Source: an uncultured Methanoregulaceae archaeon
Lineage (GTDB): Archaea; Halobacteriota; Methanomicrobia; Methanomicrobiales; Methanospirillaceae
Length of the DNA stretch: 64,000 bases
Direction: 5' to 3'
Assembly: GCA_963705255.1 (NCBI GenBank)
Contig: OY970061.1
Coordinates: 2,368,001 to 2,432,000 of the forward strand
The notes beneath the pieces are model-generated. The model searched no databases, had not been told where the DNA came from, and saw nothing but the letters and a program-made list of their open reading frames with translations. Position numbers and translations under genes: made by a program. Shown in pieces: positions 16,146-36,143 of this stretch (its first letter is position 1; the number at the start of each line of letters is the position of its first letter).

Positions 16146-17834
16146 TTACCTTGCTGGGATGATCAGTGAGCGCTCGCCGGCGGGCATGAACTCGCGGATT
16201 GCACCCTTTGCGAACTCGCGGCGGACTTCTGAGAAGTCGAACTTGAGCGACGGGTCTGCGAATGTGATCTTCATCAGCGGGGACAGGGTCCATGCATCTC
16301 CGCGTGCAATGTGGGCGGATCCGGCAATAGCGGCGTACTCTCCCTGGTGACCGACGTTCATTGCATAGTTCGGGTAGTTCGGTCCACGGAGCTCGCCGAC
16401 CAATCCCTCGTCGGGACGGATCGACATACAGTTTGCGGAACCGCACTGGTCCTGCAGGTCGTAGCCGAAGAAGCCGAGACGTGACCAGCCTTCCTTGTGC
16501 ATGAGCATGGAGAGGTACCAGCCGTTCAGGCCTGCGTTGGAATTTGCGGTTGCAAGTCCAACGGAGATACCTGATGCTGCTGCAAGGACGGAGGCACGCT
16601 GGGAACCACCGAAGTGGCTCTCGAGAGCGGTCGGGAACTGCTCGTACTGCTCCATACCGTAGAGGTTGACCTCGGTTGCGATGTCGCTGACGACTTCCTG
16701 GGTCGCCTTTGCCTTGCCGATGCCACCGTGCTTCTTCTTGACGTAGTCCACACCATACTCGGTGTAGTCATCAAGAATGTTGTCGGTGTATGCAGCGGTT
16801 GCATACTGGGTGAACCCGACACCACCGGACATGTAGGATCCGAGCCAGATCTGGTCGAAGAGCATCGTGCCTGCTGCAACGATCTCAAGAGATGACCTGA
16901 CGGGGTCGTTGGGGTACTTGCGGTCTGACTGGACCATGTCGCAGAAGTGTCCGAACTTGATGCCACCTGGCTCGTTCGGGCCACGTGCACGGCGGGCGGG
17001 CAGGATGTCTGCCATCTGGATGACACCGGCGTGTTTCGCGGCGAATGCAAGGTCGGCGACTGCTGCCTCACCGGCGCACATCTTGTACGCGCCGATGAAG
17101 GACATACCGATCTGCATCGCGGACCACCGGGAGGTGGTTCCACCATCGCAGGTCCTGCTGACGGTCGTGGGGATGTGTATAGCCTGCCACATCGACTTGC
17201 CGACGGCTGCCTTCAGCTGTGCTGCCATCTTGGCCGGGAAGAGCTTGTCGACGTTGAGCACGAACTGGGGCTCGAGGTCGTCTGCCATCTCGTCGTCGCC
17301 CGTGAAGACTTTCACGTAGCAATCGTCGACGAGTCCCGGGTGGGTCTCGACCATGTGTTCCTGGACAACGGCTGCACCGGGCATTGCGTGGTTCAGCACG
17401 TGGAGGTACTCGTTGATGGTCTCAGGGGTGACTTCCTTGCCGAGACGCTTCTGGAGCGTGCCGTGGGCGAGGTCGAGGCCGACGATGATCGTGCGGCGGA
17501 TGTCGTCCCACATCTGCTGCATAGCGGCGTTGTTGACAAAGTGCAGGTCATCGCCTTCGACAAAGACACCGGTGGTGCTGACTTCGTAGGATGTCAGCTG
17601 GCGCTGGCCGAGCGGAATACCGCCGCAGTGGCAGCGCTTGGGGTCGTACATGGAGATGCCGCGGTCCATCTCGGCCTTCTTTCCGGCCTTCATGAACTCG
17701 ACTTTTCTCGGGGACTGCTCAAGGCCCTTGCGCAGATAGACGGTGGACATTGCCTGGGGGTCTTCTGCAAACTTTGTCTTCATTGCCTTCAGGAAGAGCT
17801 TCTGGGTCCTTTCGATTTTAGCTGCTTTTGCCAT
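16146..17834 (-). CDS. mcrA: Methyl-coenzyme M reductase alpha subunit
   Basis: [42 protein letters not shown]. Confidence 0.99.
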
Positions 17835-21922: not shown

Positions 21923-24073
21923 TTACTGCTCACCTCCGAGCAGGAATGCATCGATCTGCGCCACGATCTGCGGGGTTGCAAAGTGGTTCATCCAGATTGC
22001 ACCGCCGGGGCAGAAGCCCCCGCAGGTCCCGCAGCCTTTGCACTTGGCTTCGGTGACCTCCATGACCGTGCGCCCGTCCTTTTCGACGAGGGCAAGAGCG
22101 CTGTACGGACAGAGGTTCACGCACATGCCGCAGCCTGCACACTTTTCCTCAATGCAAGTGGCAAAGTACGGCTCAAGCTCGACTTCACCCTTGTGGATGG
22201 GGATGCTTGCTGCAGATGCTGCGCCCTCTGCGGATGCTACAGTGTCGGGGATATCCTTCGGTCCCTGGCAGACACCGGCAAGGAAGACTCCGGCAGTGGT
22301 TGTACCGCACGGGTTCAGCTTCGGATGGGCTTCCAGGAGCCAGCCGTCCATCGAGCAGGAGACACCGAAGAGCTTGCGGGTCCTGTTGGTGTCTTCCTTG
22401 GGCTGCACTGCTGCAGCGAGGACCACGAGATCGACTTCCATATCGACCGGGCGGTCGAGCAGGGTGTCATCTGCCATCACGTGAAGGTTCTTGGTGCTCT
22501 TGTCTTCAAGGATGTTTGCCACACGTCCGCGGATGAACTTCGCGCCCTCGTCCTGGATGCGGTAGTAGAACTCTTCGTACATCTTGCCGAATGAACGGAT
22601 ATCCATGTAGAAGATGTAGGGTGTGCACCCGGGTATCTTCTCGATGATCTGGTGGGCGTGTTTCAGCGAGTACATGCAGCAGAACCGTGAACAGTACGGT
22701 TTCCCGGTACCAGTGTTGTCACGGGAACCTGCGCAGAGCACGAACCCGACTCTCTTGGGCGTCTGGCCATCGCTCGGGCGGACAAGGTGGCCGCCGGTCG
22801 GACCGGATGCACAGATGAGGCGTTCGAATTCGAGGCTCGTGATGACGTTCTCGAATCTCTTGTATCCCCACTCCTCCTTCTTCTCGATCGGGAAGATATC
22901 AAAGCCGGTTGCAAGGATAGCGGTTCCGACTTTGACCTTGACGAACTCGTCTTTTGACTCGAGATCGATTGCCCTCTTCTCAGGTCCGCAGGCAGTGACG
23001 CACAGCCCGCACTTAATACATGAATTGAAGTCGATCGTAAAGATCAGCGGAACGACCTGCGGGTGGTTGATATAAATCGCTTTGCGGGGCTTCATGCCCA
23101 CTTCAAAGTTGTTCGGCTTTACCACCGGGCAGACCACGTCACAGTCACCACAGCCGTTACAGCCTCCACCGACAATGCCCCGTGCTTCGGCTTCTGTGGG
23201 GGTGAGGACACCACGGGCCTTCTTGCGGATGGTGACATCAAAGTTTCCGATGTAACCTTCGACAGAATCCACTTCTGACCAGGTCATCAGTTCGATGTTT
23301 TGGGCCCTGCCGACATCCACCATCTTTGGTGTTAAGATACACTGGGAACAGTCAAGGGTCGGGAACGTCTTGTCCAGCTGGGACATACGTCCGCCGATAC
23401 TGGTATCGGACTCAATGAGGTAGGTCTTGATGCCTGCACTTGCCAGATCGAGTGCTGCCTGCATACCGGCAACCCCGGCTCCGACAACCATCGCCGCTTT
23501 TTCAACCGGCACGGACTTCGGGAACAGGTCCTGCAGGAGCGATGCCTTTGCGACTGCAATCCTGATTGCATCCTTTGCCTTTTCCGTGGATCCTTCCTGG
23601 TCGTGCATGTGCACCCATGAGTTCTGTTCACGGATGTTTGCCATCTCGAACCGGAACGGGTTCAGTCCGCCTTCCTTGGTCGCAGTCCTGAACGTTGGCT
23701 CGTGGAGACGGGGAGAACATGCGGCGACAACGACACCGGTGAGTTTTTGTTCCTTGATTGCCTTGTTGATCACACCCTGCCCGGGCATCGAGCACATATA
23801 CTTGTAGTTGTCAACATAGGCTACATTCGGGATGGTTTTTGCATATTCCTGTACGGTAGGGATATCCATCGACCCGGCAATGTTGGTACCGCAGTGGCAG
23901 ATGAAGACACCGATACGTGCCTCCTGCTTGGTGGTGCTGCCTGCTGCAGCCGGTGCCGCTGCCTGGGGCTTTGCTGCCTGTTTCTTGACTTCCTGTTTTA
24001 CCGGGGCTTCCTTCTTTGCGTCCTGCTTCTTTGTCTCGGTCTTCTTGGTAGTTGTTTTCTTCTTTTCTGCCAT
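21923..24073 (-). CDS. hdrA: Heterodisulfide reductase subunit A
   Basis: CHCGTNIAG, ACSPRLHE, KTFPTLDCSQC, YCSRFCCMY, CQGPKDIP. Confidence 0.97.
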   Translation of the reverse strand: MAEKKKTTTKKTETKKQDAKKEAPVKQEVKKQAAKPQAAAPAAAGSTTKQEARIGVFICHCGTNIAGSMDIPTVQEYAKTIPNVAYVDNYKYMCSMPGQGVINKAIKEQKLTGVVVAACSPRLHEPTFRTATKEGGLNPFRFEMANIREQNSWVHMHDQEGSTEKAKDAIRIAVAKASLLQDLFPKSVPVEKAAMVVGAGVAGMQAALDLASAGIKTYLIESDTSIGGRMSQLDKTFPTLDCSQCILTPKMVDVGRAQNIELMTWSEVDSVEGYIGNFDVTIRKKARGVLTPTEAEARGIVGGGCNGCGDCDVVCPVVKPNNFEVGMKPRKAIYINHPQVVPLIFTIDFNSCIKCGLCVTACGPEKRAIDLESKDEFVKVKVGTAILATGFDIFPIEKKEEWGYKRFENVITSLEFERLICASGPTGGHLVRPSDGQTPKRVGFVLCAGSRDNTGTGKPYCSRFCCMYSLKHAHQIIEKIPGCTPYIFYMDIRSFGKMYEEFYYRIQDEGAKFIRGRVANILEDKSTKNLHVMADDTLLDRPVDMEVDLVVLAAAVQPKEDTNRTRKLFGVSCSMDGWLLEAHPKLNPCGTTTAGVFLAGVCQGPKDIPDTVASAEGAASAASIPIHKGEVELEPYFATCIEEKCAGCGMCVNLCPYSALALVEKDGRTVMEVTEAKCKGCGTCGGFCPGGAIWMNHFATPQIVAQIDAFLLGGEQ

Positions 24074-24083
24074 TCTTACCACC

Positions 24084-25007
24084 TCACAGGACCTTCTGCA
24101 GGAACGGTTCGCAGCTGATACCATGGAGGTCCAGCCCGAGGTCCTGCGGGCTCATTCCCTGTGCCAGTCCGAGGAGTTCGGCGAAGTGAAGTACGGGCAG
24201 TCCATAGGAAACGCCGAACTTCTCCTGGATCTCGATCTGGCCGCGGTCGAACTGAAGCTGACAGAACGGGCAGATGTCCGTGAGTGCGTCCACCTTCTCT
24301 TCTTTCAGGTTGATCAGCTTCTCGTTGGTGATGTCCAGTGAGTGGACGATATCGTACCCGCGGACACCGCCACCGGCACCACAGCACTGCATCTTGTTGC
24401 GGTATTCCACCGGGGTTGCGCCCAGTGCGGCAACAAGCTCTTCCATCCAAGTCGGGTGCTCGGTGTTCAGCATGACTTCTTTCTCAAACTCACGGTCCTT
24501 GTGGGGCTTGACCAGGTGGCAGCCGTAGTGGACTGCGATGCGGGCACCTGTCAGGGGGTTTGTGACGCTGTCCCGGACCTTGTCGACGCCGATAAACTTG
24601 TCGTTGTAGAGGAGTTCTGCCGTGTGGTACACGTTGATAGTACCTTTGTACTCCATGTCTACTTCCTTGAGGACTTCATTGACGGCATCGCGGAGATCCT
24701 TGTTGTGCTTGAGCTTGTGGTTGACTTCCCAGATCGACTTGTAACAGCCGTTGCAGACAAGGGCGATATCCATCTTCATCTGCTCGGCGAGCACGAGGTT
24801 CCGGGCTGCCATTGCATAGAAGACACTGAGGTCGATCGAGCCAAATGCACCCGGGGCCGGGCAGCAGCTTGCGCCCTTCAGGGGGACGAGCTCAACGCCA
24901 AGCTTTTTCATCGCTTTTATGGAGGCGGATTCGACACCGGGGTAGCGGTTCGGGGCAATACATCCGAGATAGAATGCAAACTTATGGTTTGCGCTTGTTT
25001 CTGACAT
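24084..25007 (-). CDS. hdrB: Heterodisulfide reductase subunit B
   Basis: CCPAPG, CNGC, HYGCH, CCGAGGG, CPFC. Confidence 0.97.
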   Translation of the reverse strand: MSETSANHKFAFYLGCIAPNRYPGVESASIKAMKKLGVELVPLKGASCCPAPGAFGSIDLSVFYAMAARNLVLAEQMKMDIALVCNGCYKSIWEVNHKLKHNKDLRDAVNEVLKEVDMEYKGTINVYHTAELLYNDKFIGVDKVRDSVTNPLTGARIAVHYGCHLVKPHKDREFEKEVMLNTEHPTWMEELVAALGATPVEYRNKMQCCGAGGGVRGYDIVHSLDITNEKLINLKEEKVDALTDICPFCQLQFDRGQIEIQEKFGVSYGLPVLHFAELLGLAQGMSPQDLGLDLHGISCEPFLQKVL

Positions 25008-25013
25008 GGTATC

Positions 25014-25595
25014 TTACCCCTCCCTCTCCTTGACGATCCGGTCTGCATTCGCCTTGAGCTTGTAGTGGTCAAGGATCTTCCTGATGCCGGGGATATATTC
25101 CGGATACATGTGGGTGGTTGGCGGGTCGCGGGTGAGGCCGAGCCGCTCGCGGGCTGCACGGTTGACATCGTTGTTCGGGACACCGTGACCTGATGAGTAG
25201 ATCGCCTGCACGGTCTTGAGGAAGTTGACGGGGACGATGTCCCTCTTGAATGCGAGATTCCTCATCGCCATGATGACATCGGTAGGCAGGATGTCACGCG
25301 GGCAGCGGTCCGAGCAGCTGTAGCAGGTTGTACAGAGCCAGAGATCGGGATCTGTCAGGGACTCGTTCTCGAGCCCGAGAACAGCTCTCCTCATGAACTT
25401 GCGGATGCGGTACGTGCTGCGGGGGGCCGACGGGCATGAACCTGTGCATGTTCCGCACTGGTAGCACATGTGGGCGATGGTACGCGAGATCCCCTTCACT
25501 TTCGTGGTGAATTCGGGGTTTGAATCCTCGCGGTAGTATCTCTGATCGTGGAGTTTTTTCTCCAACGCTTCGGGGTAACCTTTTGTTCTTGCCAT
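25014..25595 (-). CDS. hdrC: Heterodisulfide reductase subunit C
   Basis: CYQCGTCTGSCPS, WLCTTCYSCSDRCPR. Confidence 0.97.
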   Translation of the reverse strand: MARTKGYPEALEKKLHDQRYYREDSNPEFTTKVKGISRTIAHMCYQCGTCTGSCPSAPRSTYRIRKFMRRAVLGLENESLTDPDLWLCTTCYSCSDRCPRDILPTDVIMAMRNLAFKRDIVPVNFLKTVQAIYSSGHGVPNNDVNRAARERLGLTRDPPTTHMYPEYIPGIRKILDHYKLKANADRIVKEREG

Positions 25596-25602
25596 AGTCC
25601 GC

Positions 25603-26775
25603 TCACGCCTTCTCCATAACTTTGAGGTTGACCTGCCCGGTAATCTCCTCTTTCACTTTCGAGGTTCTCCTGGTGCAGAGTTTCTCCTTGATCCGCTTGA
25701 ACAGGTCCGTCTCCGTTCCCTTCATGCGGATACCAGTCCTCTGCAGGACGATGATGTCCTCACCGGGACATGCATTGACGCAGGCGCCGCAAAGGATACA
25801 GTAATCCTTGTTGACGGCAATGGTTGCCTCAATCTCGTGCTTCATCTCTGCTGCAGGTTTTGCTGACGGCAGATAGATTGCATTTGCCGGGCAGATCTCG
25901 ACACAGGTCGAGCAGCCGCCGGGGCATTTGTCGGCATGGAATTCGATATCGCCTTCAAAAAGCTTCTCAACCGTGATCGCTTCAGTCGGGCAGTTCCGGG
26001 AACACCATGTGCAGGTGCAGCAGTTGTCCTGGATAATGTCGACTTTGCCGTCGACCTTGTCGGAAACGACTTCACGCTCGACGGTGATGCACTCTTCAGG
26101 GCATGCCTCTACGCATACCTTGCAGGCATCACACTTGGTCTCGTCCCAGATCACGTCACCCTCCACTTTTCCGGTCTCCGCGGTGAACCCCTTGTGTTTC
26201 ACCACGAGTGCCGGGCAGAGTGCACCACACAGGCCGCAGAGAGAACATTTCTCCTTGTCTACGGTAAACGTTATCTTCGTCTTGATAGCGGTCTGCCGGT
26301 CCTTGGCGCCTGCCACGGGTCCCTTGTAGGTCCCTTCAAATGCCGGGACGTTGCGGTCGATGGCGTCGCGCGGGCATACCTCTTCACAGATCGTACACCT
26401 GACGCATTTCCCGTCATCGATCTCCGCTTTCATATCATACTTCGGGAACCCTTCCTTCTCGATAATCGGGAGTCTCTCTTGTCCGTCTACCTTCAATGTC
26501 AGTGCATTGAACGGGCACATGATGACGCAGACGCCACAGTAGGAACACTTGGTCTCGTCCACGTCCACTGGAGCAGCGTAGTTGATAGCGCCACGCCTTG
26601 TCGCCCCGACAAGCCCGAGGACAATTGCATCCTCAGGACAAGCCTCGACACATATGCCGCATCCCGTGCAGGTCTCTGCATTGAGTATCAGGTTATTGAC
26701 GTTCTGAAGGAGTTTCTGCTCCATCACAACGTTAACACCATCCTTCTTCTTGGAAAATTTTGGATACAATGCCAT
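25603..26775 (-). CDS. fwdF: Polyferredoxin, formylmethanofuran dehydrogenase subunit F
   Basis: Eight CxxCxxCxxxCP-type motifs; upstream of hdrC. Confidence 0.85.
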   Translation of the reverse strand: MALYPKFSKKKDGVNVVMEQKLLQNVNNLILNAETCTGCGICVEACPEDAIVLGLVGATRRGAINYAAPVDVDETKCSYCGVCVIMCPFNALTLKVDGQERLPIIEKEGFPKYDMKAEIDDGKCVRCTICEEVCPRDAIDRNVPAFEGTYKGPVAGAKDRQTAIKTKITFTVDKEKCSLCGLCGALCPALVVKHKGFTAETGKVEGDVIWDETKCDACKVCVEACPEECITVEREVVSDKVDGKVDIIQDNCCTCTWCSRNCPTEAITVEKLFEGDIEFHADKCPGGCSTCVEICPANAIYLPSAKPAAEMKHEIEATIAVNKDYCILCGACVNACPGEDIIVLQRTGIRMKGTETDLFKRIKEKLCTRRTSKVKEEITGQVNLKVMEKA

Positions 26776-27375: not shown

Positions 27376-28260
27376 ATGGAAATCAACGGCGTTACGATCG
27401 ATAATACCTACGCAGAGGCATTCCCGACATGGGTCTGCCGGATTATCATCACTGCGGTCACCAAGGAATGGGCAAAGAAAGCAGCAACGGAAGCAACCGG
27501 TTTTGCAACATCCGCGATCGGTTGTCCCTGCGAGGCAGGCATAGAGGGATATGTCCCGGCAAGCGGGACTCCGGATGGAAGACCCGGTGTAGCCATCCTG
27601 ATCTGTGCCAGCAAGAAGAAGCTCAAGGAGCAGGTTGTCGAGCGCCTCGCAGAATGCGTCCTTACGGCACCGACAACTGCTGTTTTCAATGGCATCACCA
27701 CAGCGGAAGAAAAGATCCCGGTCAAGCTCCACTTCTTTGGTGATGGCTACGAGTACCAGAAGGAAGTTGGCGGCCGCAAGTGCTGGGTCATCCCGATCAT
27801 GAACGGCGAATATGTTGGTGAAGAGGAGTTCGGTATCGTTAAGGGGGTAGCTGGCGGCAACTTCTTTGTGATGGGAGAAAACCAGATGGCGGCCCTTATG
27901 GGTGCCGAGGCAGTTGTTGAGGCTATCGATCTGGTCCCGGGAACAATCACCAGTTTCCCCGGCGGCATTGTCGCGAGCGGCTCGAAAGTCGGCAGCCTGA
28001 AGTACAAGTTCATGCCAGCCTCAACCAATGAGAAGTACTGCCCGACACTCCGCGAGAAAGTGCCGGACTCCAAGATCCCTGCAGGCGTCAAGGCCGTCTA
28101 CGAGATCGTGATCGATGGTATTGACGAAAAGTCGGTCGCGGAAGCGATGGCGGCAGGTGTGAAAGCTGCGGTTATGGTTCCCGGTGTGAAGTTTATCTCT
28201 GCCGGTAACTTTGGTGGCACGCTTGGGCCGTACAAGATCGAGCTTCACAAGGTTCTGTAA
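27376..28260 (+). CDS. ftr: Formylmethanofuran:H4MPT formyltransferase
   Basis: [30 protein letters not shown]. Confidence 0.97.
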
Positions 28261-28468
28261 AAATTTCCCTTTTTATTTCCGTGGGTACATCGATTCATAT
28301 ATATAATGTCATTACCGATTATTTTGTTAACGAAAATTTCGGCGACAATATGATCTCAATCAGATCGGATGATGCAAAGAAGCGGTTCGGGCTGCTCTTC
28401 TCACAGATTCCTGGTGAAAATCGACTGGAGGAGTGGCAGGGCGGAAATAATCGAGGCGGCGGGACTCT

Positions 28469-29366
28469 ATGGTGAACATCTCGGAACCTTACATCATCCA
28501 GTACCCGAAGATCGTCGCAGTGGCCGATGAGACCGGAGAGCGGGTGGAGCTCATCGAGTTTTTCGAATGTATTGGCGGGGCTATGTGGACCCAGCACCAT
28601 TACGCGAAGAGCCAGATTGTGGATGACGTCCGGTGCGTGGGTTCAACAACCCGGTACCTGATCACCCCGGGATCAGTCGATCTCGCACTGGAAGGCTCCC
28701 GGTTCCCCGCGGGCATTTCCGGGGTTGTCGTGGATGATACCGAGATTGCGATCACCTATATTGGCATGGGGGGAGGGGGCGTTGGCGCCGCAGCCTGCAG
28801 GTCGGATGCTGTCGGTGTCCTGCGGAGCAGGAGTGATCCGGCCGGTGGGGGGAAAGTGGCCGGTGCCACCCTCTGGATCCCCCGCAGGCAGCGGGTGCTG
28901 ATCGGGGTCGATGATACCGACACCCCGGAAGAGGGTGCGACATGGACCCTCGTCCATAACATTGCAAAAGCCGTGGAAGACGAACAGTCTGTCTATCTCT
29001 CCCATACGATCGTCCAGCTCTTCCCGGTACCTGTACCGCACCAAGAACTGCGTGAGCCTGGTTGCGGAATTTGCATCAACGGATCCTGATGGTCTTATAG
29101 ACCGGTTTCATAGCCTTCTTAAGCGGTACACCCTTTCGCAAAAAACCGGGATGGCGGCTTATACCGGATTTTCCCTGTCCGAAGAACTGCTTGCATTCGG
29201 GAGGAAAGTCAAGCGTGGGGAAGTAGAGCCCGGACTCCTGGAAAATCTCGGGGACGATAACCTCCGAATCATCATGAAGGGGCGGGGGATCATAGGGGCA
29301 GTCGCGGCCATTCCCTTCTCCACCAACTATAAAGAGGCACTCGAATTATGCAATGGAAGGATGTAA
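28469..29366 (+). CDS. Methanogenesis marker 11-like protein with TiaS-type GxDDTD domain (frameshift near 29035)
   Basis: GMGGGGVGA, IGVDDTDTPEEGATW, HTIVQLFP, GRGIIGAVAA. Confidence 0.65.
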
Positions 29367-30316
29367 AAGCCCGGCTCCTTGCCGCAGGATCAGCCCGGCT
29401 CACCGGAGAACCTGCGGACACGTTTATTGCACGCTCCGCTGCAGGACCGGGCGCCGGCGGAAAGGGATCGGTTTTCTTTGCGATGGGCGGCCACCGGGTA
29501 AAATTCGTCCTCAACCCCACAAGCGGCATTGAGATCGCCCACCGGGGCAATGGCGTGGCTGACCTGTATTTCGAGGGACAGATTTTCCCCGGCCGCCTCC
29601 TCGAGCCCGGGTTCCACTGCCCTGACCAGGCCTTCATCACGGTGACGGGCAGCTGCATATTCAGGTGCCGGTACTGTAATGTGCCGGGAATCGGGGGCAG
29701 GCGCAAGACGATCGAAGAGATAATGGACATGGTTGAATCGGTGAGGCACCGCATCCATGCGATCTCCATAACAAGTGGAGTCCTTTCAAGCATCGGGGAA
29801 GAGGAAGCCTATGTTCTCGAAGTCGTAAAACACCTCACGTTCTTCGGGCTCCCCATCGGTGTTTCCATCTATCCGACCGAAAAGACGCCCGATCACCTGC
29901 ACGAACTCGGAGTTGCGGAAGTGAAGTTCAACCTTGAGGCGGCAACACCGGATCTCTTTGAACGGATGTGCCCCGGGCTAGACTACGACCGGCTCTGGCG
30001 CGTGCTGGATCGCTCCGTTGAACTCTTTGGCAGGGGACGGGTTTTTTCCAATGTTATCATCGGACTTGGCGAGACTGATGAAGATTTGGAGGCCTGCATC
30101 CGTACACTGACCGGCCACGGCGTGATCCCGGTGCTGCGCCCGCTCAACCCGGTCGCGGAATTCAGCGGAACACCCCGCCCGTCCGCCGAGCGACTGAAGA
30201 AAGCCTTTACGATACACAGCAGGGCTCTCTCTGATGCCGGCCTCGATACACGCCAAGCGCTCACGATGTGCACGAACTGTGCAGGCTGTGACTTGGTTCC
30301 CGGGAGGGATGAATGA
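29348..30316 (+). CDS. Radical SAM protein (BioB-like, uncharacterised)
   Basis: CIFRCRYC; extra HCP and C-terminal CTNCAGC. Confidence 0.8.
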   Translation: MQWKDVKARLLAAGSARLTGEPADTFIARSAAGPGAGGKGSVFFAMGGHRVKFVLNPTSGIEIAHRGNGVADLYFEGQIFPGRLLEPGFHCPDQAFITVTGSCIFRCRYCNVPGIGGRRKTIEEIMDMVESVRHRIHAISITSGVLSSIGEEEAYVLEVVKHLTFFGLPIGVSIYPTEKTPDHLHELGVAEVKFNLEAATPDLFERMCPGLDYDRLWRVLDRSVELFGRGRVFSNVIIGLGETDEDLEACIRTLTGHGVIPVLRPLNPVAEFSGTPRPSAERLKKAFTIHSRALSDAGLDTRQALTMCTNCAGCDLVPGRDE

Positions 30317-31584
30317 AAGGAGTTACCGGTCTGGCCGATGCCCTTCTCCGATATACCGACCGCCGGTATACTGTCCCGGGGTTCCCGATCACCAACCTTG
30401 GTGATCTGACAAAGGCTGAGATGGTGATCAACGAGAAGACGGCACTTGAGTATGCCCTCGGGGACTCCCTTTCCAGACGACGTGCCGCGGTGATCATCAA
30501 GAATGTCGGGGTGAATGCCTGTGCAGACCCACTCCTCCAAGCGACGGCACAGGGCCTCATCGGCGGGGTCGTTCTCGTGGCAGGCGATGACCCTGACTCC
30601 ATCGGGTCCCAGACCGCCCAAGACTCGCGATACTACGGTGAACTGGCGGAACTCCCGGTGATCGAGCCGGATGAAAACACCTGTTATGCGGCCGTGGAGT
30701 CCTCGCTTGAGGCTTCGGAAAAATTCTCCCGCGTAGCAATCCTCCGCCTGACCCCTCAGATACTTGACGCTGAGATCGCTTCGCATATCGTCCCCCGTCG
30801 GGACCGGAAGGGCAGGCTTTCAGAGCGCACCTGGACCATGAACGGGCGGATCACGGCGGCAGAACAGCTCTACCGGGAGATGTTTGCCTGGTCGGACAAG
30901 TCACCCCTGAACACCTGGAACGGGGAACCGGCAAGTGCCGGTGCCGCACCGGGCAACACCCGGATCGTGACGGTTCATCCCCTGCCGGGACGGGCAGGAG
31001 AGATCCGGGACATTCGCGAGTTCGGCCGTACCTTTGTCCGCGACCACCGCGGTCTCCGGCCCCCCGTTCCAAAGGAACGCCCGGAGGTCATGGAGGACCG
31101 GGGGTATTACCGCACATTCTGTGCAGACTGCCCGTTCAGGCTGGTGCTGGACATCCTCAGGGAGCGGGGGTTGAAGCTTATCTGTGATGCCGGGTGTTCA
31201 GTCTTCGGCATGACGCCGCCGTACGAACTGGGGGTGGCAAGTTACGGAATGGGTGCGAGCATCGCCGTTGCAGCCCAGAGCACCGGGGTTGCCCTTATCG
31301 GGGATTATGCGCTGCTCCATTCTGGCCTGAATGCCTTGATCGATGTCTACGAAAAACGCCGGGCTCTCCTGTGCGTAGTGATGAAGAACAACTGCACGGC
31401 AATGACCGGCGGACAGCCGGCATATGACCCCGTCCCCTACCTTTCGTGGGCGGACCCGGTCATCTGCCGCGCCGAAGACGAACGGGTGCTGGAAGAGGAA
31501 CTCGTGGCCGGGGACGGGCCGCGGACAGTTGTCGTTGAAGGGGAATGTCCGGAGGGAAGCCACCATGAAACCGTGGAATGTTGA
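30313..31584 (+). CDS. TPP-dependent enzyme, IorA-like
   Basis: INEKTALEYALG, KNVGVN, FCADCP, GDYALLHSG, NNCTAMTGGQ. Confidence 0.8.
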   Translation: MKGVTGLADALLRYTDRRYTVPGFPITNLGDLTKAEMVINEKTALEYALGDSLSRRRAAVIIKNVGVNACADPLLQATAQGLIGGVVLVAGDDPDSIGSQTAQDSRYYGELAELPVIEPDENTCYAAVESSLEASEKFSRVAILRLTPQILDAEIASHIVPRRDRKGRLSERTWTMNGRITAAEQLYREMFAWSDKSPLNTWNGEPASAGAAPGNTRIVTVHPLPGRAGEIRDIREFGRTFVRDHRGLRPPVPKERPEVMEDRGYYRTFCADCPFRLVLDILRERGLKLICDAGCSVFGMTPPYELGVASYGMGASIAVAAQSTGVALIGDYALLHSGLNALIDVYEKRRALLCVVMKNNCTAMTGGQPAYDPVPYLSWADPVICRAEDERVLEEELVAGDGPRTVVVEGECPEGSHHETVEC

Positions 31585-32698
31585 GATCTGTGATGTGACG
31601 CTGAGGGATGGGGAACAGACGCCGGGAGTCTCGTTCTCGTGCAGGGAGAAAGTGGATATTGCCAGCACGCTGGATGCGATAGGGATTGAAGTCATCGAAG
31701 CGGGTTTTCCTGCCGTATCCGCGAACGAAAAGGAGTGCGTGACAACGATCGCCGATCTCGGGCTTGACGCCCGCATCTGTGGTTTTGCCCGGGCCCGGGA
31801 AGGTGACATACAGGCAGCGATCGACTGCGGGGTGGACATGGTGAGCATTTTCATTCCGACATCCGAACTTCACGTCCGGCTCAAGTTCAGGAAGCCCCGG
31901 GAGCAGGTCCTCCAGGATGCCCTGAAGATGATCGATTACGCGAGGGAACAGGGTGTTCAGGTCCGGTTTGCAGCCGAGGACGCATCCCGGACCGATCTGC
32001 CTTTTCTCAGGGAAGTCTACCGCGGTGCGGCGGACCATGGGGCCGTCCTCCTCAGTTTTGCCGACACGGTAGGCTGCCTGATCCCAAGCGAGATGCGAGT
32101 TGTGATGGCGGACCTCGTAGCATCGGTCGACCGCCCATTCTGCGCCCACTGTCACAATGACATGGGCTGCGCCGTGGCAAACACGATCACAGCGGCTGAG
32201 GCAGGGGCCTTCCAGCTCCACACCACGGTCAACGGGATCGGGGAACGTGCCGGGAACGCATCCCTTGACGAACTGCTGGTCGCGCTGAGGATGAAAGGAG
32301 GTGTTGACCGGTATGATCTCTCGCACCTCAAAGACCTCTCCCTCATGGTAGAGAAGTATTCCGGGATAACCCTCCCCCGGAACAAACCTGTAACCGGGGA
32401 ACTCGCCTTTTCGCACGAGAGTGGCATCCACATCGCGGCGATCCTCGAAGACCCGCTCGCGTATGAGTACTTCCCGCCCGGGCTTGTTGGCGGAGAACGG
32501 CACTTCATTCTCGGCAAGCACACCGGAAAAAAGGCGCTTGAGCATGTGGTGGCTTCCATGGGCTGCGAGCTCTCGGAAACGCAGATCTGCCGTGTTCTCG
32601 ACATGGTCAAGAACCATTCGGAACACAAGTGCAACATCACGCCGGATGTGCTGAAAAAACTGATCCGGAAAGCACAACATGAACAGGAGAATGCCTGA
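31565..32698 (+). CDS. aksA: Homocitrate synthase family protein
   Basis: DVTLRDGEQ, HCHND, GIGERAGN, HESGIH; no LeuA regulatory domain. Confidence 0.75.
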   Translation: MKPWNVEICDVTLRDGEQTPGVSFSCREKVDIASTLDAIGIEVIEAGFPAVSANEKECVTTIADLGLDARICGFARAREGDIQAAIDCGVDMVSIFIPTSELHVRLKFRKPREQVLQDALKMIDYAREQGVQVRFAAEDASRTDLPFLREVYRGAADHGAVLLSFADTVGCLIPSEMRVVMADLVASVDRPFCAHCHNDMGCAVANTITAAEAGAFQLHTTVNGIGERAGNASLDELLVALRMKGGVDRYDLSHLKDLSLMVEKYSGITLPRNKPVTGELAFSHESGIHIAAILEDPLAYEYFPPGLVGGERHFILGKHTGKKALEHVVASMGCELSETQICRVLDMVKNHSEHKCNITPDVLKKLIRKAQHEQENA

Positions 32699-33911
32699 AT
32701 GAGTACCCTTTCGGAACGGATCCTTGGTGCATCGGCCGGGGAATATGTGGACCGGAACGTGGACCGGGCCTATGCCCACGATGGTACCGGTGTCCTTGCC
32801 CTTGAAGCATGGAAGAACATGAGCGGAAGCCGGCTTGCAAAAGCAACCGAGCTCTATCTGCAGTTCGACCATATTGTCCCGGCAAACAACAGTACCACCG
32901 CTACGCTCCAGCACGAGCTCCGTGAATTCGCCCGCAGTTCGTTCATGCACTTCTCCGATATCGGTGGAGGCATCTGCCACCAGCTGATGAGCGAGGGGGT
33001 CGTCCTGCCCGGGGAGATCGTTGTCGGTGCCGACTCGCACAGTGTTACTGTCGGGGCATTCGGCGCATTCGCGACCGGGGTCGGAGGCTACAGATATGGC
33101 AGCGATCTGGCTGACCGGTGAGACGTGGTTCCGGGTCCCGGAATCTGTCGGGATCCACCTCTCGGGCAGGTTTACCGGAGCTGCGGAAGCCAAGGACCTC
33201 GCCCTTACCTATGTCGGAAAGCTCGGAACTGACGGTGCCACGTATCAGGCGCTCGAGTTCGTGGGCGAGGGGATGCGGCACCTCTCTATGGATGAGCGGC
33301 TCGTGCTCTCCAACCTCTCGGTGGAAGCCGGGGCCAAGGCTGGGCTGTGCTATGCGGACGATATCACCGTCCGCTATCTCAGGGAACGGGGGCACGCGGT
33401 GTCAGCCCAGTTTCCTGAACCCTGCACGTACGCACAGGAACTGGAGATCGATCTCTCCGACGTCGTCCCGCTTGTTGCCGTACCCCCCCGTGTGGATATG
33501 GTGCAACCCGTCCACGAGCTCGAAGGGCTCCCGCTCGACCAGGTCTTTGTCGGGACCTGCACGAACGGGAGGTACTCCGACCTTGCCCGGTTCGCCCGGA
33601 TCGTGAAGGGCAGAAAAGTGGCGGTGAGGACCATAGTTATCCCGGCCTCTGCAGAAATTCTCGAGAAGACAATCCGGTCCGGCGTGCTTGCTGATATCAT
33701 CGGCGCAGGCTGCACCATCGGGACTCCCGGCTGCGGCCCCTGCATCGGCTACCATATGGGTGTCCTTGGTGAAGGGGAAGTATGCCTCTCTACGGCGAAC
33801 CGGAATTTCAAGAACCGGATGGGCGTGGGCGGCGAGATCTATCTCTCTTCTGTGGCCACCGCCGCAGCGAGCGCTCTTGAAGGTGAGATAACCGCGCCCG
33901 AGGTGATCTGA
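32699..33911 (+). CDS. aksD: Homoaconitase large subunit (frameshift near 33085)
   Basis: GICHQ, GADSH, GTCTNGR, GCGPCIG, NRNFKNRMG. Confidence 0.75.
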
Positions 33912-34381
33912 TGCAGGGTGAAGGGCACGCTGTCTGTCTCCCGGCGGATATCGATACCGATTTGATTATTGCCGGGCGGTACCTGAGGACCAGAGACCGG
34001 AGCCTCTGGGCAGCCCACGTATTCGAGGACCTCGATCCCGCCCTTGCAGCCCGGCTCAAAGGCGCAGTGATCGTTGCCGGCAAGAATTTTGGCTGCGGGT
34101 CGTCGCGTGAGCAGGCCCCGATCGCAATCCGCGAAGCCGGTGTTGCTGCGGTCATTGCCCCCTCATTTGCTCGGATCTTCTTCCGCAACGCGGTCAACAT
34201 CGGGCTGCCGCTCATTGAATCGAATCTGTCCTGTGAAGAAGGGAATTCTGTCAGGTTCAACGTGGCTGAAGGCTGGGTGGAGAGCGGAGGAAAACGGTAC
34301 GGGATCCGTCCCCTCTCACCCCGCATGCGGGAGATTCTTGCTGCAGGAGGACTCGTGGAATACTGGAGAGGACACCAATGA
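33911..34381 (+). CDS. aksE: Homoaconitase small subunit
   Basis: IDTDLII, YLRT loop (homoaconitase type), NFGCGSSREQA. Confidence 0.8.
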   Translation: MQGEGHAVCLPADIDTDLIIAGRYLRTRDRSLWAAHVFEDLDPALAARLKGAVIVAGKNFGCGSSREQAPIAIREAGVAAVIAPSFARIFFRNAVNIGLPLIESNLSCEEGNSVRFNVAEGWVESGGKRYGIRPLSPRMREILAAGGLVEYWRGHQ

Positions 34382-35178
34382 TATTCCCGGAACACTGCAA
34401 ATACGTGGGGATCGCCTCGACAAAACCCTGCGGAGAACGGGTCTATTTCCTGAGCCGGTACCTTCTCCGGGAGACGGATGGCGGGTATGAGTTATCGGAA
34501 GTGACACTCGACCCTGAAGAGAAAGGGATGATGCGGGACATCGTCTCGTCAAAGGTACTTGCCCGGCCCCATGAAGTGTACTGCTATCTGGAAAAAGTGC
34601 AGCTCCACGACCGCACACGGCTTGTCCGGCTGGCCCTTGAATCAGGACGCCGTTGCACGGTATTTACCGGCCTTGACGAGCACCGCACGTTCGTCCTCGA
34701 CCCCGACCTTTCCGGATTTCTGGAGATCCATGTCTATGACGTGACCCCTCCCCGCCCGAGCCTTTCCCTGTGCCTGCAGGAACTGGAATCCGCGGGGCTC
34801 TTCGGTGACCTCTCCGTTGTATTCAGCCACCATGTGCGGGACATCACGGATATCCATGCCGATGTTTACCCGTGCCGGGCAGCAGGATTTGCGAGAACGC
34901 TCGATGCCGATCCGATGTGCGGCGGTGAGCGCGTTGCAGGCTGTCTCACCGGCTCGCAGTTTTATACCGAGTCCTATGGGCACAACTTCAGGCTCGAGAA
35001 CATCTGTCCCCTTGAAAGCGTGAACGAAGAACCTTTCATCGCCAGGTGCTGCCGTGCAGAACGTGAGGGCCCCGGGAGCTGGAACGGGAAGTCAGGATCC
35101 ATTGTTCACTGGGGGGCAAACCCTGCGCAGATCGCCGGTTCGGTCAGGGAACTGGTCAGCCGCTGGAGGGCGAAGTGA
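34378..35178 (+). CDS. Cys-rich conserved hypothetical protein
   Basis: Coupled to aksE and aksF; YPC, AGC, ICP, RCC motifs. Confidence 0.7.
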   Translation: MIFPEHCKYVGIASTKPCGERVYFLSRYLLRETDGGYELSEVTLDPEEKGMMRDIVSSKVLARPHEVYCYLEKVQLHDRTRLVRLALESGRRCTVFTGLDEHRTFVLDPDLSGFLEIHVYDVTPPRPSLSLCLQELESAGLFGDLSVVFSHHVRDITDIHADVYPCRAAGFARTLDADPMCGGERVAGCLTGSQFYTESYGHNFRLENICPLESVNEEPFIARCCRAEREGPGSWNGKSGSIVHWGANPAQIAGSVRELVSRWRAK

Positions 35179-36143
35179 AAAAAATTGCGGTTGTCGAAGG
35201 AGACGGAATCGGGCACGAAGTGATTCCGGTTGCAAAACGTGTCCTCGAACTCCTGCATCCTGAGTACGAGTATTTTCCGGTTGAGGTTGGCTATGGGAGG
35301 TGGGAGCGAACCGGGTGCCCCTGTACCGATCCTGATATTGCGGAACTGAAGACCGCTGATGCAATACTTTTTGGGGCTGTCACCACTCCTCCTATGAAGG
35401 ACTACCAGAGTGTTGTCCTGCGAATCAGGAAAGCGCTCGATCTCTATGCGAACCTGCGCCCGGTGAAGGATGGCGGGTTCGATATCATGATCGTACGGGA
35501 AAATACCGAAGGGCTCTACTCCGGCATCGAGGAGTCCGGTCCTGACCGGGCGACGACGCTCCGGGTCGTGACCCGGAAAGGGTCTGAACGGATCGCGAAA
35601 ACCGCAGTCCGGCTTGCACGGGAGCGGGGGGGCAGGCTGACGGTCGCGCACAAGGCAAATGTGCTCAAGTCCGATGTCTTCTTCCGGGATATCTGCCTTG
35701 CAGAGGCAAAGGCTGTCGGAATACCCTGTAATGACAAATTCATTGATGCCCTGTCGCTCGACATCCTCCAGCATCCGGAGTCGTATGACGTGGTCGTGAC
35801 CACCAATGTTTTCGGGGACATCCTGTCCGACGTGGCTTCGTACCTTGTCGGCGGGCTGGGATTCGTGCCCAGTGCCAATATCGGCGACCGCTACGCCCTT
35901 TTTGAGCCGGTGCACGGGAGTGCGCCCGATATTGCCGGGAAAAATATCGCGAACCCAATTGCTGCAATCCGGAGTGTGGCACTGCTGCTTGCATATCTGG
36001 GGGACAAGGGTGGTGCAGAGCGGACGGAATCTGCCATCAGGGAAGTGGTTGCCCAAAGGATTCGCACCCGGGACCTTGGCGGATCAGCCGGGACCCGCGA
36101 GTTCGGTGATGCGGTCATCCGTGCGCTCAGACACGGGCAATGA
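35175..36143 (+). CDS. aksF: Homoisocitrate/isopropylmalate dehydrogenase family protein
   Basis: GDGIGHEV, RENTEGLY, HKANVLK, EPVHGSAPDIAG. Confidence 0.75.
   Translation: MKKIAVVEGDGIGHEVIPVAKRVLELLHPEYEYFPVEVGYGRWERTGCPCTDPDIAELKTADAILFGAVTTPPMKDYQSVVLRIRKALDLYANLRPVKDGGFDIMIVRENTEGLYSGIEESGPDRATTLRVVTRKGSERIAKTAVRLARERGGRLTVAHKANVLKSDVFFRDICLAEAKAVGIPCNDKFIDALSLDILQHPESYDVVVTTNVFGDILSDVASYLVGGLGFVPSANIGDRYALFEPVHGSAPDIAGKNIANPIAAIRSVALLLAYLGDKGGAERTESAIREVVAQRIRTRDLGGSAGTREFGDAVIRALRHGQ

Follow-up and report, generated by a model that had tools for sequence, protein, structure and literature searches.

Which genes carry out the steps of coenzyme B (CoB; 7-mercaptoheptanoylthreonine phosphate) synthesis that follow 2-oxosuberate? 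Methyl-coenzyme M reductase (MCR), the enzyme behind nearly all biological methane, uses CoB as one of its two substrates, and to our knowledge no genes have been assigned after 2-oxosuberate since the chemistry was outlined around 1990. The question is raised again by an operon at 28469-36143 of a 64,000-nucleotide stretch of contig OY970061.1 (assembly GCA_963705255.1, an uncultured Methanoregulaceae archaeon), referred to below as the window. The operon reads, in order, marker 11 (methanogenesis marker protein 11), a radical S-adenosylmethionine (SAM) protein, a thiamine pyrophosphate (TPP) protein, aksA, aksD, aksE, a cysteine-rich DUF7714 protein and aksF. A preliminary description of the window had proposed that the four genes other than aks serve late CoB steps, a proposal that fits the synteny and the distribution across genomes reported here. 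We are fairly confident that the operon encodes at least one late CoB step. With rather less assurance, and on balance, we read it as the CoB operon of a Methanoregula-like methanogen that would hold more than the known half of the pathway.

As recently as 2025, the pathway to CoB was described in print as one that 'is still unknown' (PMC12068725). In our own literature search, which left subscription journals outside its scope, we found no assignment of late CoB genes, nothing on the genes described here, and no paper naming DUF7714, methanogenesis marker protein 11 or TIGR03280.

DUF7714 is a distant homologue of XcbA

The protein encoded between aksE and aksF matches PF24830 at 296.4 bits against a gathering score of 25 (residues 1-263 on model positions 1-280). 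A phmmer search with the window protein against 1.8 billion representative proteins returned 99 relatives only, with XcbA-family members at E 8.7e-12. All 48 full-length DUF7714 relatives match the XcbA model, and nine distant relatives score 183-400 bits on it, above its cut-off of 150. When the methanogen clade was aligned with those nine XcbA-family members by hhalign, the match extended over 266 columns (100%, E 2.4e-42). Among the 48 sequences C189, C210, C224 and C225 are invariant and C166 is at least 90% conserved, and all five align with invariant cysteines of the XcbA set. On sequence grounds, DUF7714 is certainly a distant homologue of XcbA.

XcbA of Xanthobacter is described as a [2Fe-2S] protein that catalyses the last step of bacterial coenzyme M (CoM) synthesis, from sulfoethanethioaldehyde to the CoM thiol (PMC9457059). 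Like XcbA of Xanthobacter autotrophicus (NF052538), DUF7714 shows homology over its full length, has the same five conserved cysteines, and is encoded in the cluster of a thiol cofactor whose thiol carbon comes from an aldehyde-level carbon. Unlike XcbA, it is archaeal, is about 23% identical to it, and lies between aksE and aksF rather than with xcbB-E; its presumed substrate would be a C7 carboxylate, not a C2 sulfonate. The AlphaFold2 model of DUF7714 has a predicted local distance difference test (pLDDT) score of 95.5 and gave 0 Foldseek matches in the PDB at E<=0.001, and a PDB profile search gave nothing (best E 0.72). VIA-align of residues 112-266 reached a best Z of 8.2, a generic alpha/beta match in the common range (HypD, Z 6.0) that shows no new fold or relationship.

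Part of the CoB scheme reportedly due to White takes 2-oxosuberate by decarboxylation to an aldehyde and from there to 7-mercaptoheptanoate. This classical scheme needs a step of the XcbA kind. Section 14.5 of PMC3087415 gives part of the route from 2-oxosuberate through the aldehyde to 7-mercaptoheptanoate.

Gene order ties the additional genes to aks

Gene order was followed in 36 loci of the same phylum centred on DUF7714, onto which the window proteins were mapped, and in 80 named loci found with the marker 11 profile (Methanoregula, Methanolinea, Methanoculleus, Methanospirillum, Methanocorpusculum, Methanothrix and others). Below, f and g numbers denote families and a genus of the sample, G a genome and L a locus. 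All eight genes are present in the window order in 16/16 Methanomicrobiales loci from six families, with DUF7714 displaced in one; ftr usually comes first, and in 12 of the 16 a tandem marker 11 paralogue also lies ahead of the eight genes. The 80 named loci comprise 59 with the full order, 12 with the same prefix up to the contig end, and 9 variants; ftr lies upstream in 50 of the 59 complete ones. Two variants, L144 (unclassified archaeon) and L149 (Methanocorpusculum petauri), read marker 11 paralogue, marker 11, radical SAM, DUF7714, with no aks genes between. The complete eight-gene order is confined to one taxonomic order.

Parts of the arrangement recur more widely. Across the 36 loci, which span five orders or families, DUF7714 adjoins aksE in 35 and aksF in 34; the one locus without aksE beside it is a 3.5-kb contig. 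The TPP gene is linked to aks in all 16 Methanomicrobiales loci, in 5/5 loci of f14 and in 4/4 of f10. The f14 loci read TPP, aksA (opposite strand), aksD, aksE, aksF, DUF7714, with marker 11 upstream in four and the radical SAM gene in two, and the f10 loci read TPP, aksA, aksD, aksE, aksF, DUF7714. Only aksE, DUF7714 and aksF are retained together in the ten loci of f7 and f23; match coordinates place marker 11 directly upstream of the TPP gene in 26/26 f7 and 6/6 f23 genomes. Given these several independent arrangements, we conclude that the four additional genes are tied to each other and to aks.

DUF7714 and the TPP protein track mcrA-bearing families

Distribution was counted in a single fixed set of 201 genomes from the window's phylum; control genomes were searched in addition. 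We detected mcrA in 109 genomes. DUF7714 occurs in 87, which make up 11 families in their entirety and of which 81 carry mcrA; none of the other 114 genomes of the sample has DUF7714. The sole f27 genome, a 350-contig assembly, carries DUF7714 without mcrA. The TPP orthologue (E<=1e-75) was found in 84 genomes, namely the DUF7714 families minus the f27 genome, plus two weak f19 matches. Four Methanomicrobiales were missed by this search, and at least two of them (G014, G198) have shortened forms detectable by tblastn. Apart from f27 and the two weak f19 matches, DUF7714 and the TPP protein therefore follow the mcrA-bearing families, and the two behave as a unit restricted to 'class II' methanogens and their methanotrophic relatives.

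The other two genes are distributed more broadly. The radical SAM family (E<=1e-40) is present in 95 genomes: the DUF7714 families, 8/27 of f15 and 1/3 of f12. Marker 11 exceeds its cut-off in 98/201 genomes, made up of the DUF7714 families, 3/4 of f16, four mcrA-positive genomes of g17 and six mcrA-negative genomes. As far as we know, the original description of TIGR03280 has it only in methanogens; six of the 98 positives have no mcrA match, so marker 11 is not restricted to genomes with mcrA.

Because DUF7714 is homologous to XcbA, lies beside aksE and is confined to mcrA-bearing families, it is probably the Fe-S reductase that forms the thiol of 7-mercaptoheptanoate. The preliminary description had let either the radical SAM or the cysteine-rich protein handle sulfur; for the latter, the idea is strengthened and sharpened by its homology to a thioaldehyde reductase.

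The TPP protein as a candidate 2-oxosuberate decarboxylase

IorA, the alpha subunit of indolepyruvate:ferredoxin oxidoreductase, is the only specific relative of the TPP protein, which scores 149.5 bits on TIGR03336 in two stretches (cut-off 650.9). The TPP-binding PP domain is present (PF02775, 32 bits against 21.9), PF02776 or PF01855 is detected in longer orthologues, and across 19 orthologues the GD...N TPP motif keeps G330, D331 and N359 without exception. A true IorA (593 residues, 830 bits) is encoded elsewhere in the genome and aligns with the TPP protein only in the PYR (34% identity) and PP (33%) domains. The protein shares with IorA and the 2-oxoacid:ferredoxin oxidoreductases the PYR and PP domains, the TPP motif and CxxC...C cysteines; unlike IorA, it has no C-terminal two-cluster ferredoxin part (CxxCxxCxxxC) and no adjacent IorB. 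The operon has no POR-gamma-type gene and the cluster no IorB-type subunit, as had already been noticed in the window. The missing ferredoxin part and the lack of IorB nearby argue against oxidation dependent on coenzyme A (CoA) and for aldehyde release. A precedent is the pyruvate:ferredoxin oxidoreductase of Pyrococcus, which can act as a decarboxylase.

A PDB sequence search with the single protein gave 0 matches, and a PDB search with its profile gave only weak rows for the PP domain of oxalyl-CoA decarboxylase (E 2e-3); the ESM Atlas returned the protein's own IorA-family clusters. The middle domain is shortened in Methanomicrobiales (375-440 residues) relative to f10 and f14 (498-547 residues). 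Ten TPP matches contain one in-frame stop (TGA, TAA or TAG), in G052, G062, G042, G169, G106, G202, G093 and G160 of f7 and in G102 and G096 of f10; the profile may here be running past the true C-terminus.

By analogy with ComDE (sulfopyruvate decarboxylase), the TPP protein may decarboxylate a 2-oxoacid non-oxidatively to an aldehyde that becomes the thiol carbon. Unlike ComDE, it belongs to another TPP-enzyme lineage and has no TIGR03845 or TIGR03846 match; the genome's ComDE is encoded at C1:1401254. That the TPP enzyme decarboxylates 2-oxosuberate, as first suggested from the window alone, is plausible in that the gene is aks-linked in three orders and co-occurs with DUF7714, but a purely non-redox role is not assured given four invariant cysteines (discussed below). 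We lean slightly towards regarding it as the 2-oxosuberate decarboxylase, judging from homology and context.

Marker 11 and the radical SAM protein

The two pieces in which marker 11 is read score 231.4 bits (model positions 1-183) and 75.8 bits (184-291) on TIGR03280, and each falls below the cut-off of 255.8 only because a frame break in the assembly divides the gene; orthologues exceed the cut-off in 18/21 relatives. A profile of intact orthologues matches TiaS structures (3u02, E 1.6e-7; 3amt, E 2.7e-4), and the AlphaFold2 model (pLDDT 86.6) gave eight Foldseek matches at E<=0.001, all of them TiaS entries. Like TiaS, the tRNA(Ile2) agmatidine synthetase, marker 11 has a C-terminal half with the TCKD/FLD fold (Foldseek E 5.5e-6, about 150 of 417 residues), and this part matches PF22641 and PF08489. 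The DDTD motif and the GATWT that follows it are invariant in 14 orthologues. Unlike TiaS, marker 11 has 298 residues rather than about 420 and no RNA-binding C-terminal domains. It falls outside the full-length TiaS family (NF040849), and a true TiaS, at 391 bits, is encoded elsewhere in the genome.

TiaS spends ATP on phosphorylating a carbonyl oxygen, which opens the carbonyl to attack by a primary amine. In the profile alignment, a marker 11 threonine aligns with a particular TiaS threonine, which we take to be the self-phosphorylated residue. By analogy, TiaS chemistry could serve well as a model for the coupling of 7-mercaptoheptanoate with threonine, and the threonine-kinase side activity of TiaS could model the final phosphorylation. 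We suggest only tentatively that marker 11 is a threonine ligase or kinase. Its N-terminal domain of about 135 residues has its own invariant GGGGVGA loop, and Foldseek with residues 1-135 returned weak rows for ACT-type regulatory domains of aspartate kinase (E 5e-3 to 2e-2). One of these weak rows is a threonine complex (E 5e-3, prob 0.63), which serves as a lead only.

Paralogues of marker 11 were also seen. A third marker 11-like protein in this genome (G000:C1:779907-781139; L003 1153-2385; 410 residues, 116 bits on TIGR03280) is encoded directly after a homoserine dehydrogenase gene, and similar paralogues of 125-141 bits occur in other sampled genomes, including families without mcrA (f9). 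A division of labour between tandem marker 11 paralogues, as ligase and kinase, was considered and rejected: the tandem paralogue is found in only 12/16 Methanomicrobiales loci and is missing in this genome. It was also not found in five Methanosarcinales-type genomes.

The radical SAM protein matches PF04055 at 65.5 bits against 29.5. Its CxxxCxxC cysteines (C103, C107, C110) are invariant, as are C91, C208, C308, C311 and C314, and it has a conserved N-terminal domain of 85 residues and a C-terminal CxxCxGCD motif. The best solved or curated matches are LipA, LipS2, BioB and RimO, with which it shares the radical SAM core and additional conserved cysteines, possible ligands of a second cluster; in PDB profile searches LipA (5exi) matched at E 2.4e-7, BioB (8vcw) at 3.1e-6 and RimO at 8.8e-5. 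Unlike LipA, LipS2 and BioB, it has its own N-terminal domain and CxxCxGCD motif, and it scores far below the NCBIfam cut-offs (LipS2 59.3 against 270, lipoyl synthase 32 against 203, BioB 29.7 against 225). LipS2 is reported to thiolate a terminal carbon (PMC9585515). A sulfur-handling role for the radical SAM protein thus draws on its resemblance to the sulfur-inserting LipA and BioB, but the resemblance is weak (E 2.4e-7 and 3e-6). In the tree, the operon copy forms its own fast-evolving clade. A few Methanomicrobiales have a second, Methanosarcina-type radical SAM copy (G079:C1:2123693-2124664, G013:C7:228915-229886 and others).

The two genes form a pair well beyond the window. Marker 11 abuts the radical SAM gene in Methanomicrobiales, in part of f14, and in 9/9 fetched f8, f16 and f17 loci with an above-cut-off score; in the tree, the radical SAM partners in f8, f16 and f17 are a distant clade, MSMEG_0568-like at 254-275 bits. 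The weak f15 marker 11 match (L167, G125) has no radical SAM neighbour. Three complete mcrA-negative genomes of one genus (G080, G087, G194) carry a CoM-type gene set: their loci L159, L160 and L161, of about 6-14 kb, contain a divergent thioredoxin reductase gene, marker 11, the radical SAM gene, a cysteate synthase-like gene, fused ComDE and an SsuA-like binding protein. The decarboxylase that accompanies marker 11 and the radical SAM gene is here ComDE. MMP16 was not found above cut-off in these three genomes or in G064 and G074. Recurrence of the pair beside two different aldehyde-forming decarboxylases suggests a role at the step from aldehyde to thiol, and it is conceivable, though we would not press it, that the two form a sulfur-insertion module.

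The best surviving alternative generalises this role. Marker 11 and the radical SAM protein may, with some plausibility but short of an even chance, be a general aldehyde-to-thiol module that is not specific to CoB and combines radical sulfur insertion with ATP activation. Such a module would serve CoB here and a CoM-like sulfonate thiol in some MCR-less archaea, and the CoB ligase and kinase would be encoded elsewhere. The constant pairing in the nine f8, f16 and f17 loci despite distant radical SAM clades speaks for it, as do the two decarboxylases beside the pair (the IorA-like TPP protein and, in G080, G087 and G194, fused ComDE), the five genomes without MMP16 above cut-off, and the sulfur insertion catalysed by the nearest solved radical SAM relatives, LipA, BioB and RimO. 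However, the likeness to sulfur-inserting enzymes is weak (LipS2, 59 bits against a cut-off of 270), and co-occurrence is not strict, as the radical SAM gene is present in 8/27 f15 genomes without an above-cut-off marker 11. Carbonyl activation for attack by an amine, the chemistry of TiaS, would also fit the threonine amide better. MMP16, moreover, is the primary CoM synthase in M. acetivorans (PMC12068725). The preliminary description had assigned the TiaS-like domain of marker 11 an ATP-dependent coupling or kinase step; the fold is confirmed by profile and Foldseek matches, but that role is not settled. Because six mcrA-free genomes carry marker 11 and ANME-1-like genomes (ANME, anaerobic methanotrophic archaea) have no match above cut-off, the role of the marker 11-radical SAM pair stays open.

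A proposed route to CoB

In the CoB route that we propose for the operon, AksA, AksD/E and AksF would elongate 2-oxoglutarate to 2-oxosuberate, the known function of their families. The IorA-derived TPP protein would then take CO2 off 2-oxosuberate to give 7-oxoheptanoate. This step is drawn as a decarboxylation because both TPP half-sites lie on one chain and neither a ferredoxin domain nor IorB is present for a CoA-dependent oxidation. A sulfur adduct of 7-oxoheptanoate, either a thioaldehyde or a thiohemiacetal, would be reduced by DUF7714 to 7-mercaptoheptanoate, as predicted from its homology. Least certain is the part played by marker 11 and the radical SAM protein, which appear to be an old, translationally overlapping pair working with the decarboxylase; they may bring in the sulfur, or may be responsible for the ATP-dependent attachment of threonine and for the phosphorylation.

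A bolder version, which we think unlikely to hold in full, places the whole CoB pathway in the eight genes. They would include a novel three-part conversion of an aldehyde to a thiol: the LipA/BioB-like radical SAM protein would give cluster sulfur, marker 11 would spend ATP and DUF7714 would supply the final two electrons. In MCR-less archaea, the marker 11-radical SAM module would produce a CoM-like thiol together with ComDE in place of the IorA-like decarboxylase, and DUF7714 would be the sulfide-dependent backup CoM synthase of Methanosarcina. The ATP spent by marker 11 would go, in that same doubtful version, to activation of the carbon centre or to the later joining of threonine and phosphorylation.

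Several points weigh against the proposed CoB route, the whole case for which is built on gene context and homology. On the XcbA model NF052538, DUF7714 reaches 56 bits against the cut-off of 150 (E 3.5e-15, model positions 38-290 of 293). In the TPP protein, C270, C273, C295 and C412 are invariant across the 19 orthologues and typical of an oxidoreductase redox cluster, which a simple decarboxylase would not need. Three of the four align with IorA cysteines beside the TPP site. With four invariant cysteines, the protein may therefore have retained a [4Fe-4S] cluster and perhaps redox activity. The radical SAM gene is unlinked to the other three in Methanosarcinaceae and has no conserved neighbours there; around its unlinked copies in 10 genomes, no gene was common to more than three loci. 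Marker 11 is above cut-off in six mcrA-negative genomes (G064, G072, G080, G087, G194, G074) and below cut-off or missing in the MCR-type families f15 (1 weak match in 27), f12 (0/3), f20 and f28. In the mcrA-negative G080, G087 and G194, the pair stands beside cysteate synthase-like and fused ComDE genes, a setting that is of the CoM rather than the CoB type.

The distribution sets a further limit on the route. No DUF7714 or TPP protein was found in 28 mcrA-positive genomes of f8, f12, f15, f16, f20 and f28, families that, in the score and copy number of mcrA, resemble lineages of the ANME-1, Methanoliparia and Syntrophoarchaeum types. DUF7714 was likewise not found in the Methanocaldococcus jannaschii control; class I methanogens are represented by one control genome. 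The route through DUF7714 and the TPP protein cannot be universal, and because these proteins are missing in other MCR-bearing lineages, those lineages must form the CoB thiol differently. There must be at least two routes to the CoB thiol, as Methanocaldococcus, ANME-1-like and related lineages are without DUF7714 and the TPP protein.

Coenzyme M, passenger and biotin alternatives

DUF7714 might instead act mainly in CoM synthesis, reducing sulfoethanethioaldehyde as XcbA does and forming the sulfide-dependent backup on loss of MMP16, with its place between aksE and aksF reflecting co-regulation of the two thiol cofactors. We regard this as improbable. Its homology to XcbA is what one would look for, and the M. 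acetivorans control carries DUF7714. According to PMC12068725, deletion of MMP16 in M. acetivorans creates a CoM requirement only when sulfide is absent, and the sulfide-dependent backup of the deletion strain (half-maximal effective concentration, EC50, 137 uM) proceeds from sulfoacetaldehyde by an enzyme that is not identified there. However, DUF7714 abuts aksE in 35/36 loci and was not found next to ComDE in genomes whose coordinates were compared. No DUF7714 was found in f15, where 24/27 genomes have ComD, and conversely it is kept inside the aks operon in 11 Methanomicrobiales without detectable ComD. All four additional genes are kept in those 11 genomes, which indicates that they are not a CoM device. 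A possible side activity of DUF7714 on sulfoacetaldehyde or its sulfide adduct would explain the Methanosarcina backup route. It should also be noted that the genomes without a ComD match (E<=1e-25) are 11 of 32 Methanomicrobiales, three of them single contigs of 98-99% completeness; these organisms may depend on external CoM or on another route.

It is also quite improbable that the four additional genes are passengers, methanogen housekeeping genes with unrelated roles, for example in methanofuran or methanopterin synthesis, that joined the aks transcription unit in Methanomicrobiales. The conserved upstream ftr (50/59 complete named loci), the presence of marker 11 in mcrA-negative genomes and the confinement of the complete order to one taxonomic order would agree with such a history. 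Against it, the links recur piecewise elsewhere, as DUF7714 with aksE/F, TPP with aks (f10, f14) and marker 11 with TPP (f7, f23), and the Methanocorpusculum-type loci L144 and L149 join marker 11, radical SAM and DUF7714 with no aks between. DUF7714 and the TPP protein were, furthermore, not found in the sampled mcrA-free families, the two weak f19 TPP matches aside.

A pimelate/biotin route, in which the TPP protein would be an oxidoreductase making pimeloyl-CoA or pimelate from 2-oxosuberate and a biotin synthase-like role would fall to the radical SAM protein, can appeal to the IorA descent and four cluster-type cysteines of the former and the weak BioB likeness of the latter (29.7 bits; 8vcw, E 3.1e-6), but is very improbable because a six-frame search of the genome (89.5% complete) found no bioB above cut-off (best 32 bits, outside the operon) and no bioD at E<=1e-5, because no IorB, CoA-binding subunit or ferredoxin domain is present, and because the TPP orthologue is confined to mcrA-bearing families, two weak f19 matches aside. 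This option, raised as an alternative in the preliminary description, is accordingly disfavoured, and we retain the CoB reading of the operon.

Frame breaks in marker 11 and aksD are assembly errors

Both marker 11 and aksD are interrupted by a frame break, which had gone unmentioned in the preliminary description. We aligned contigs from four sequencing runs to the stretch, one probably from the source sample and three from other studies. The extra base at 29032 in marker 11 is missing in the contigs of 4/4 runs, and so is the extra base in aksD, placed at 33086 in three runs and at the equivalent position 33089 in one. In relatives, both genes are single open reading frames (ORFs; marker 11 292-330 residues, aksD 403-438 residues). 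As the run contigs are without the extra bases and relatives have single ORFs, both breaks are one-base assembly insertions, and the organism therefore has eight intact genes. A pseudogene reading was considered and is ruled out by the contigs of all four runs. Relative to short-read contigs from this population, the assembly thus has two one-base insertions within 7.7 kb. Gene-splitting indel errors are probably numerous in it; the completeness of 89.5% for a single-contig genome suggests that such indels are common.

Features of the operon and its neighbours

The eight genes lie on the + strand and leave no intergenic gaps, neighbours overlapping by 1-20 nt or abutting; the radical SAM gene shares 19 nt with marker 11 and 4 nt with the TPP gene. 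This confirms what had been seen in the window, and the nearby ftr, hdr and mcr genes are likewise borne out by Pfam domains and an mcrA match (Table 1). The genome consists of one contig of 2.6 Mb with a rated completeness of 89.5%, and close homologues bear Methanoregula names.

Table 1. Positions of the operon genes and neighbouring features in the window.
Feature	Position	Strand	Matches and remarks
ftr (formylmethanofuran:H4MPT formyltransferase)	27376-28260	+	PF01913, PF02741
Marker 11 (TIGR03280)	28469..29366	+	Two frames; model positions 1-183 at 28469..~29035, 184-291 at 29037..29366
Radical SAM protein	29348-30316	+	PF04055, 65.5 bits
IorA-derived single-chain TPP protein (PYR + PP domains)	30313-31584	+	TIGR03336, 149.5 bits; PF02775
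aksA, homocitrate synthase-type 2-oxoacid elongation enzyme	ORF opens 31424, likely start 31565, end 32698	+	PF00682, 276 bits
aksD, homoaconitase large subunit	32699-33911	+	Two frames; NF001614 and HacA_Meth
aksE, homoaconitase small subunit	33911-34381	+	HacB2_Meth, TIGR02087
DUF7714 protein (266 residues, 11 Cys)	34378-35178	+	PF24830, 296 bits
aksF, homoisocitrate dehydrogenase-type	35175-36143	+	PF00180, 303 bits
Hdr-like genes	21923-26775	-	Pfam domains
mcrA	16476-16856	-	12 kb upstream of the operon

The aks products belong to the LeuA/LeuCD/LeuB-type families, with PF00682, PF00330, PF00694 and PF00180 all far above cut-offs. AksA also matches PF22617 and reaches at most 454 bits on the NCBIfam isopropylmalate/homocitrate synthase families, below their equivalog cut-offs; its orthologues have 375-390 residues. 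The aksD pieces cover positions 3-139 and 133-417 of NF001614/HacA_Meth and score 103 and 291 bits on HacA_Meth (cut-off 550). AksE scores 164 bits on HacB2_Meth (cut-off 230) and 164 bits on TIGR02087, above that model's cut-off of 109, and AksF scores 383.5 bits on TIGR02088 (cut-off 409.8) and 325 on AksF2_Meth (cut-off 540). Equivalog scores for the methanogen Aks models are not reached, yet those models are among the best-scoring named ones, and the NCBI cut-offs appear to be tuned to other methanogens. A YLRT recognition loop is said to mark homoaconitase (Jeyakanthan et al. 2010). The operon aksE has GRYLRT at this loop, whereas the genome's second LeuD-type gene (C1:1798166) has GRFLTL; the operon small subunit belongs to a set separate from this leucine-type gene.

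Upstream, ftr is a conserved neighbour but probably a separate transcript. In the 208-nt spacer between ftr and marker 11 (28261-28468), a T-run immediately follows the stop of ftr. An AT-rich, TATA-like stretch lies some 160 nt ahead of the start of marker 11, which implies a long leader. An Rfam scan of this spacer found no family, with one snoRNA row at chance level (E 0.09).

Implications for CoB synthesis

The operon narrows the search for late CoB genes to four named proteins. One of them, DUF7714, has an experimentally characterised homologue that predicts a cofactor, a substrate class and an assay, which makes the late CoB question directly testable by expression, assay and knockout in Methanosarcina. 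The four proteins would also be new methanogen-specific targets for methane inhibitors. Finally, bacterial CoM and archaeal CoB synthesis would share an enzyme family, although the CoM synthesis of the two domains has been called convergent.

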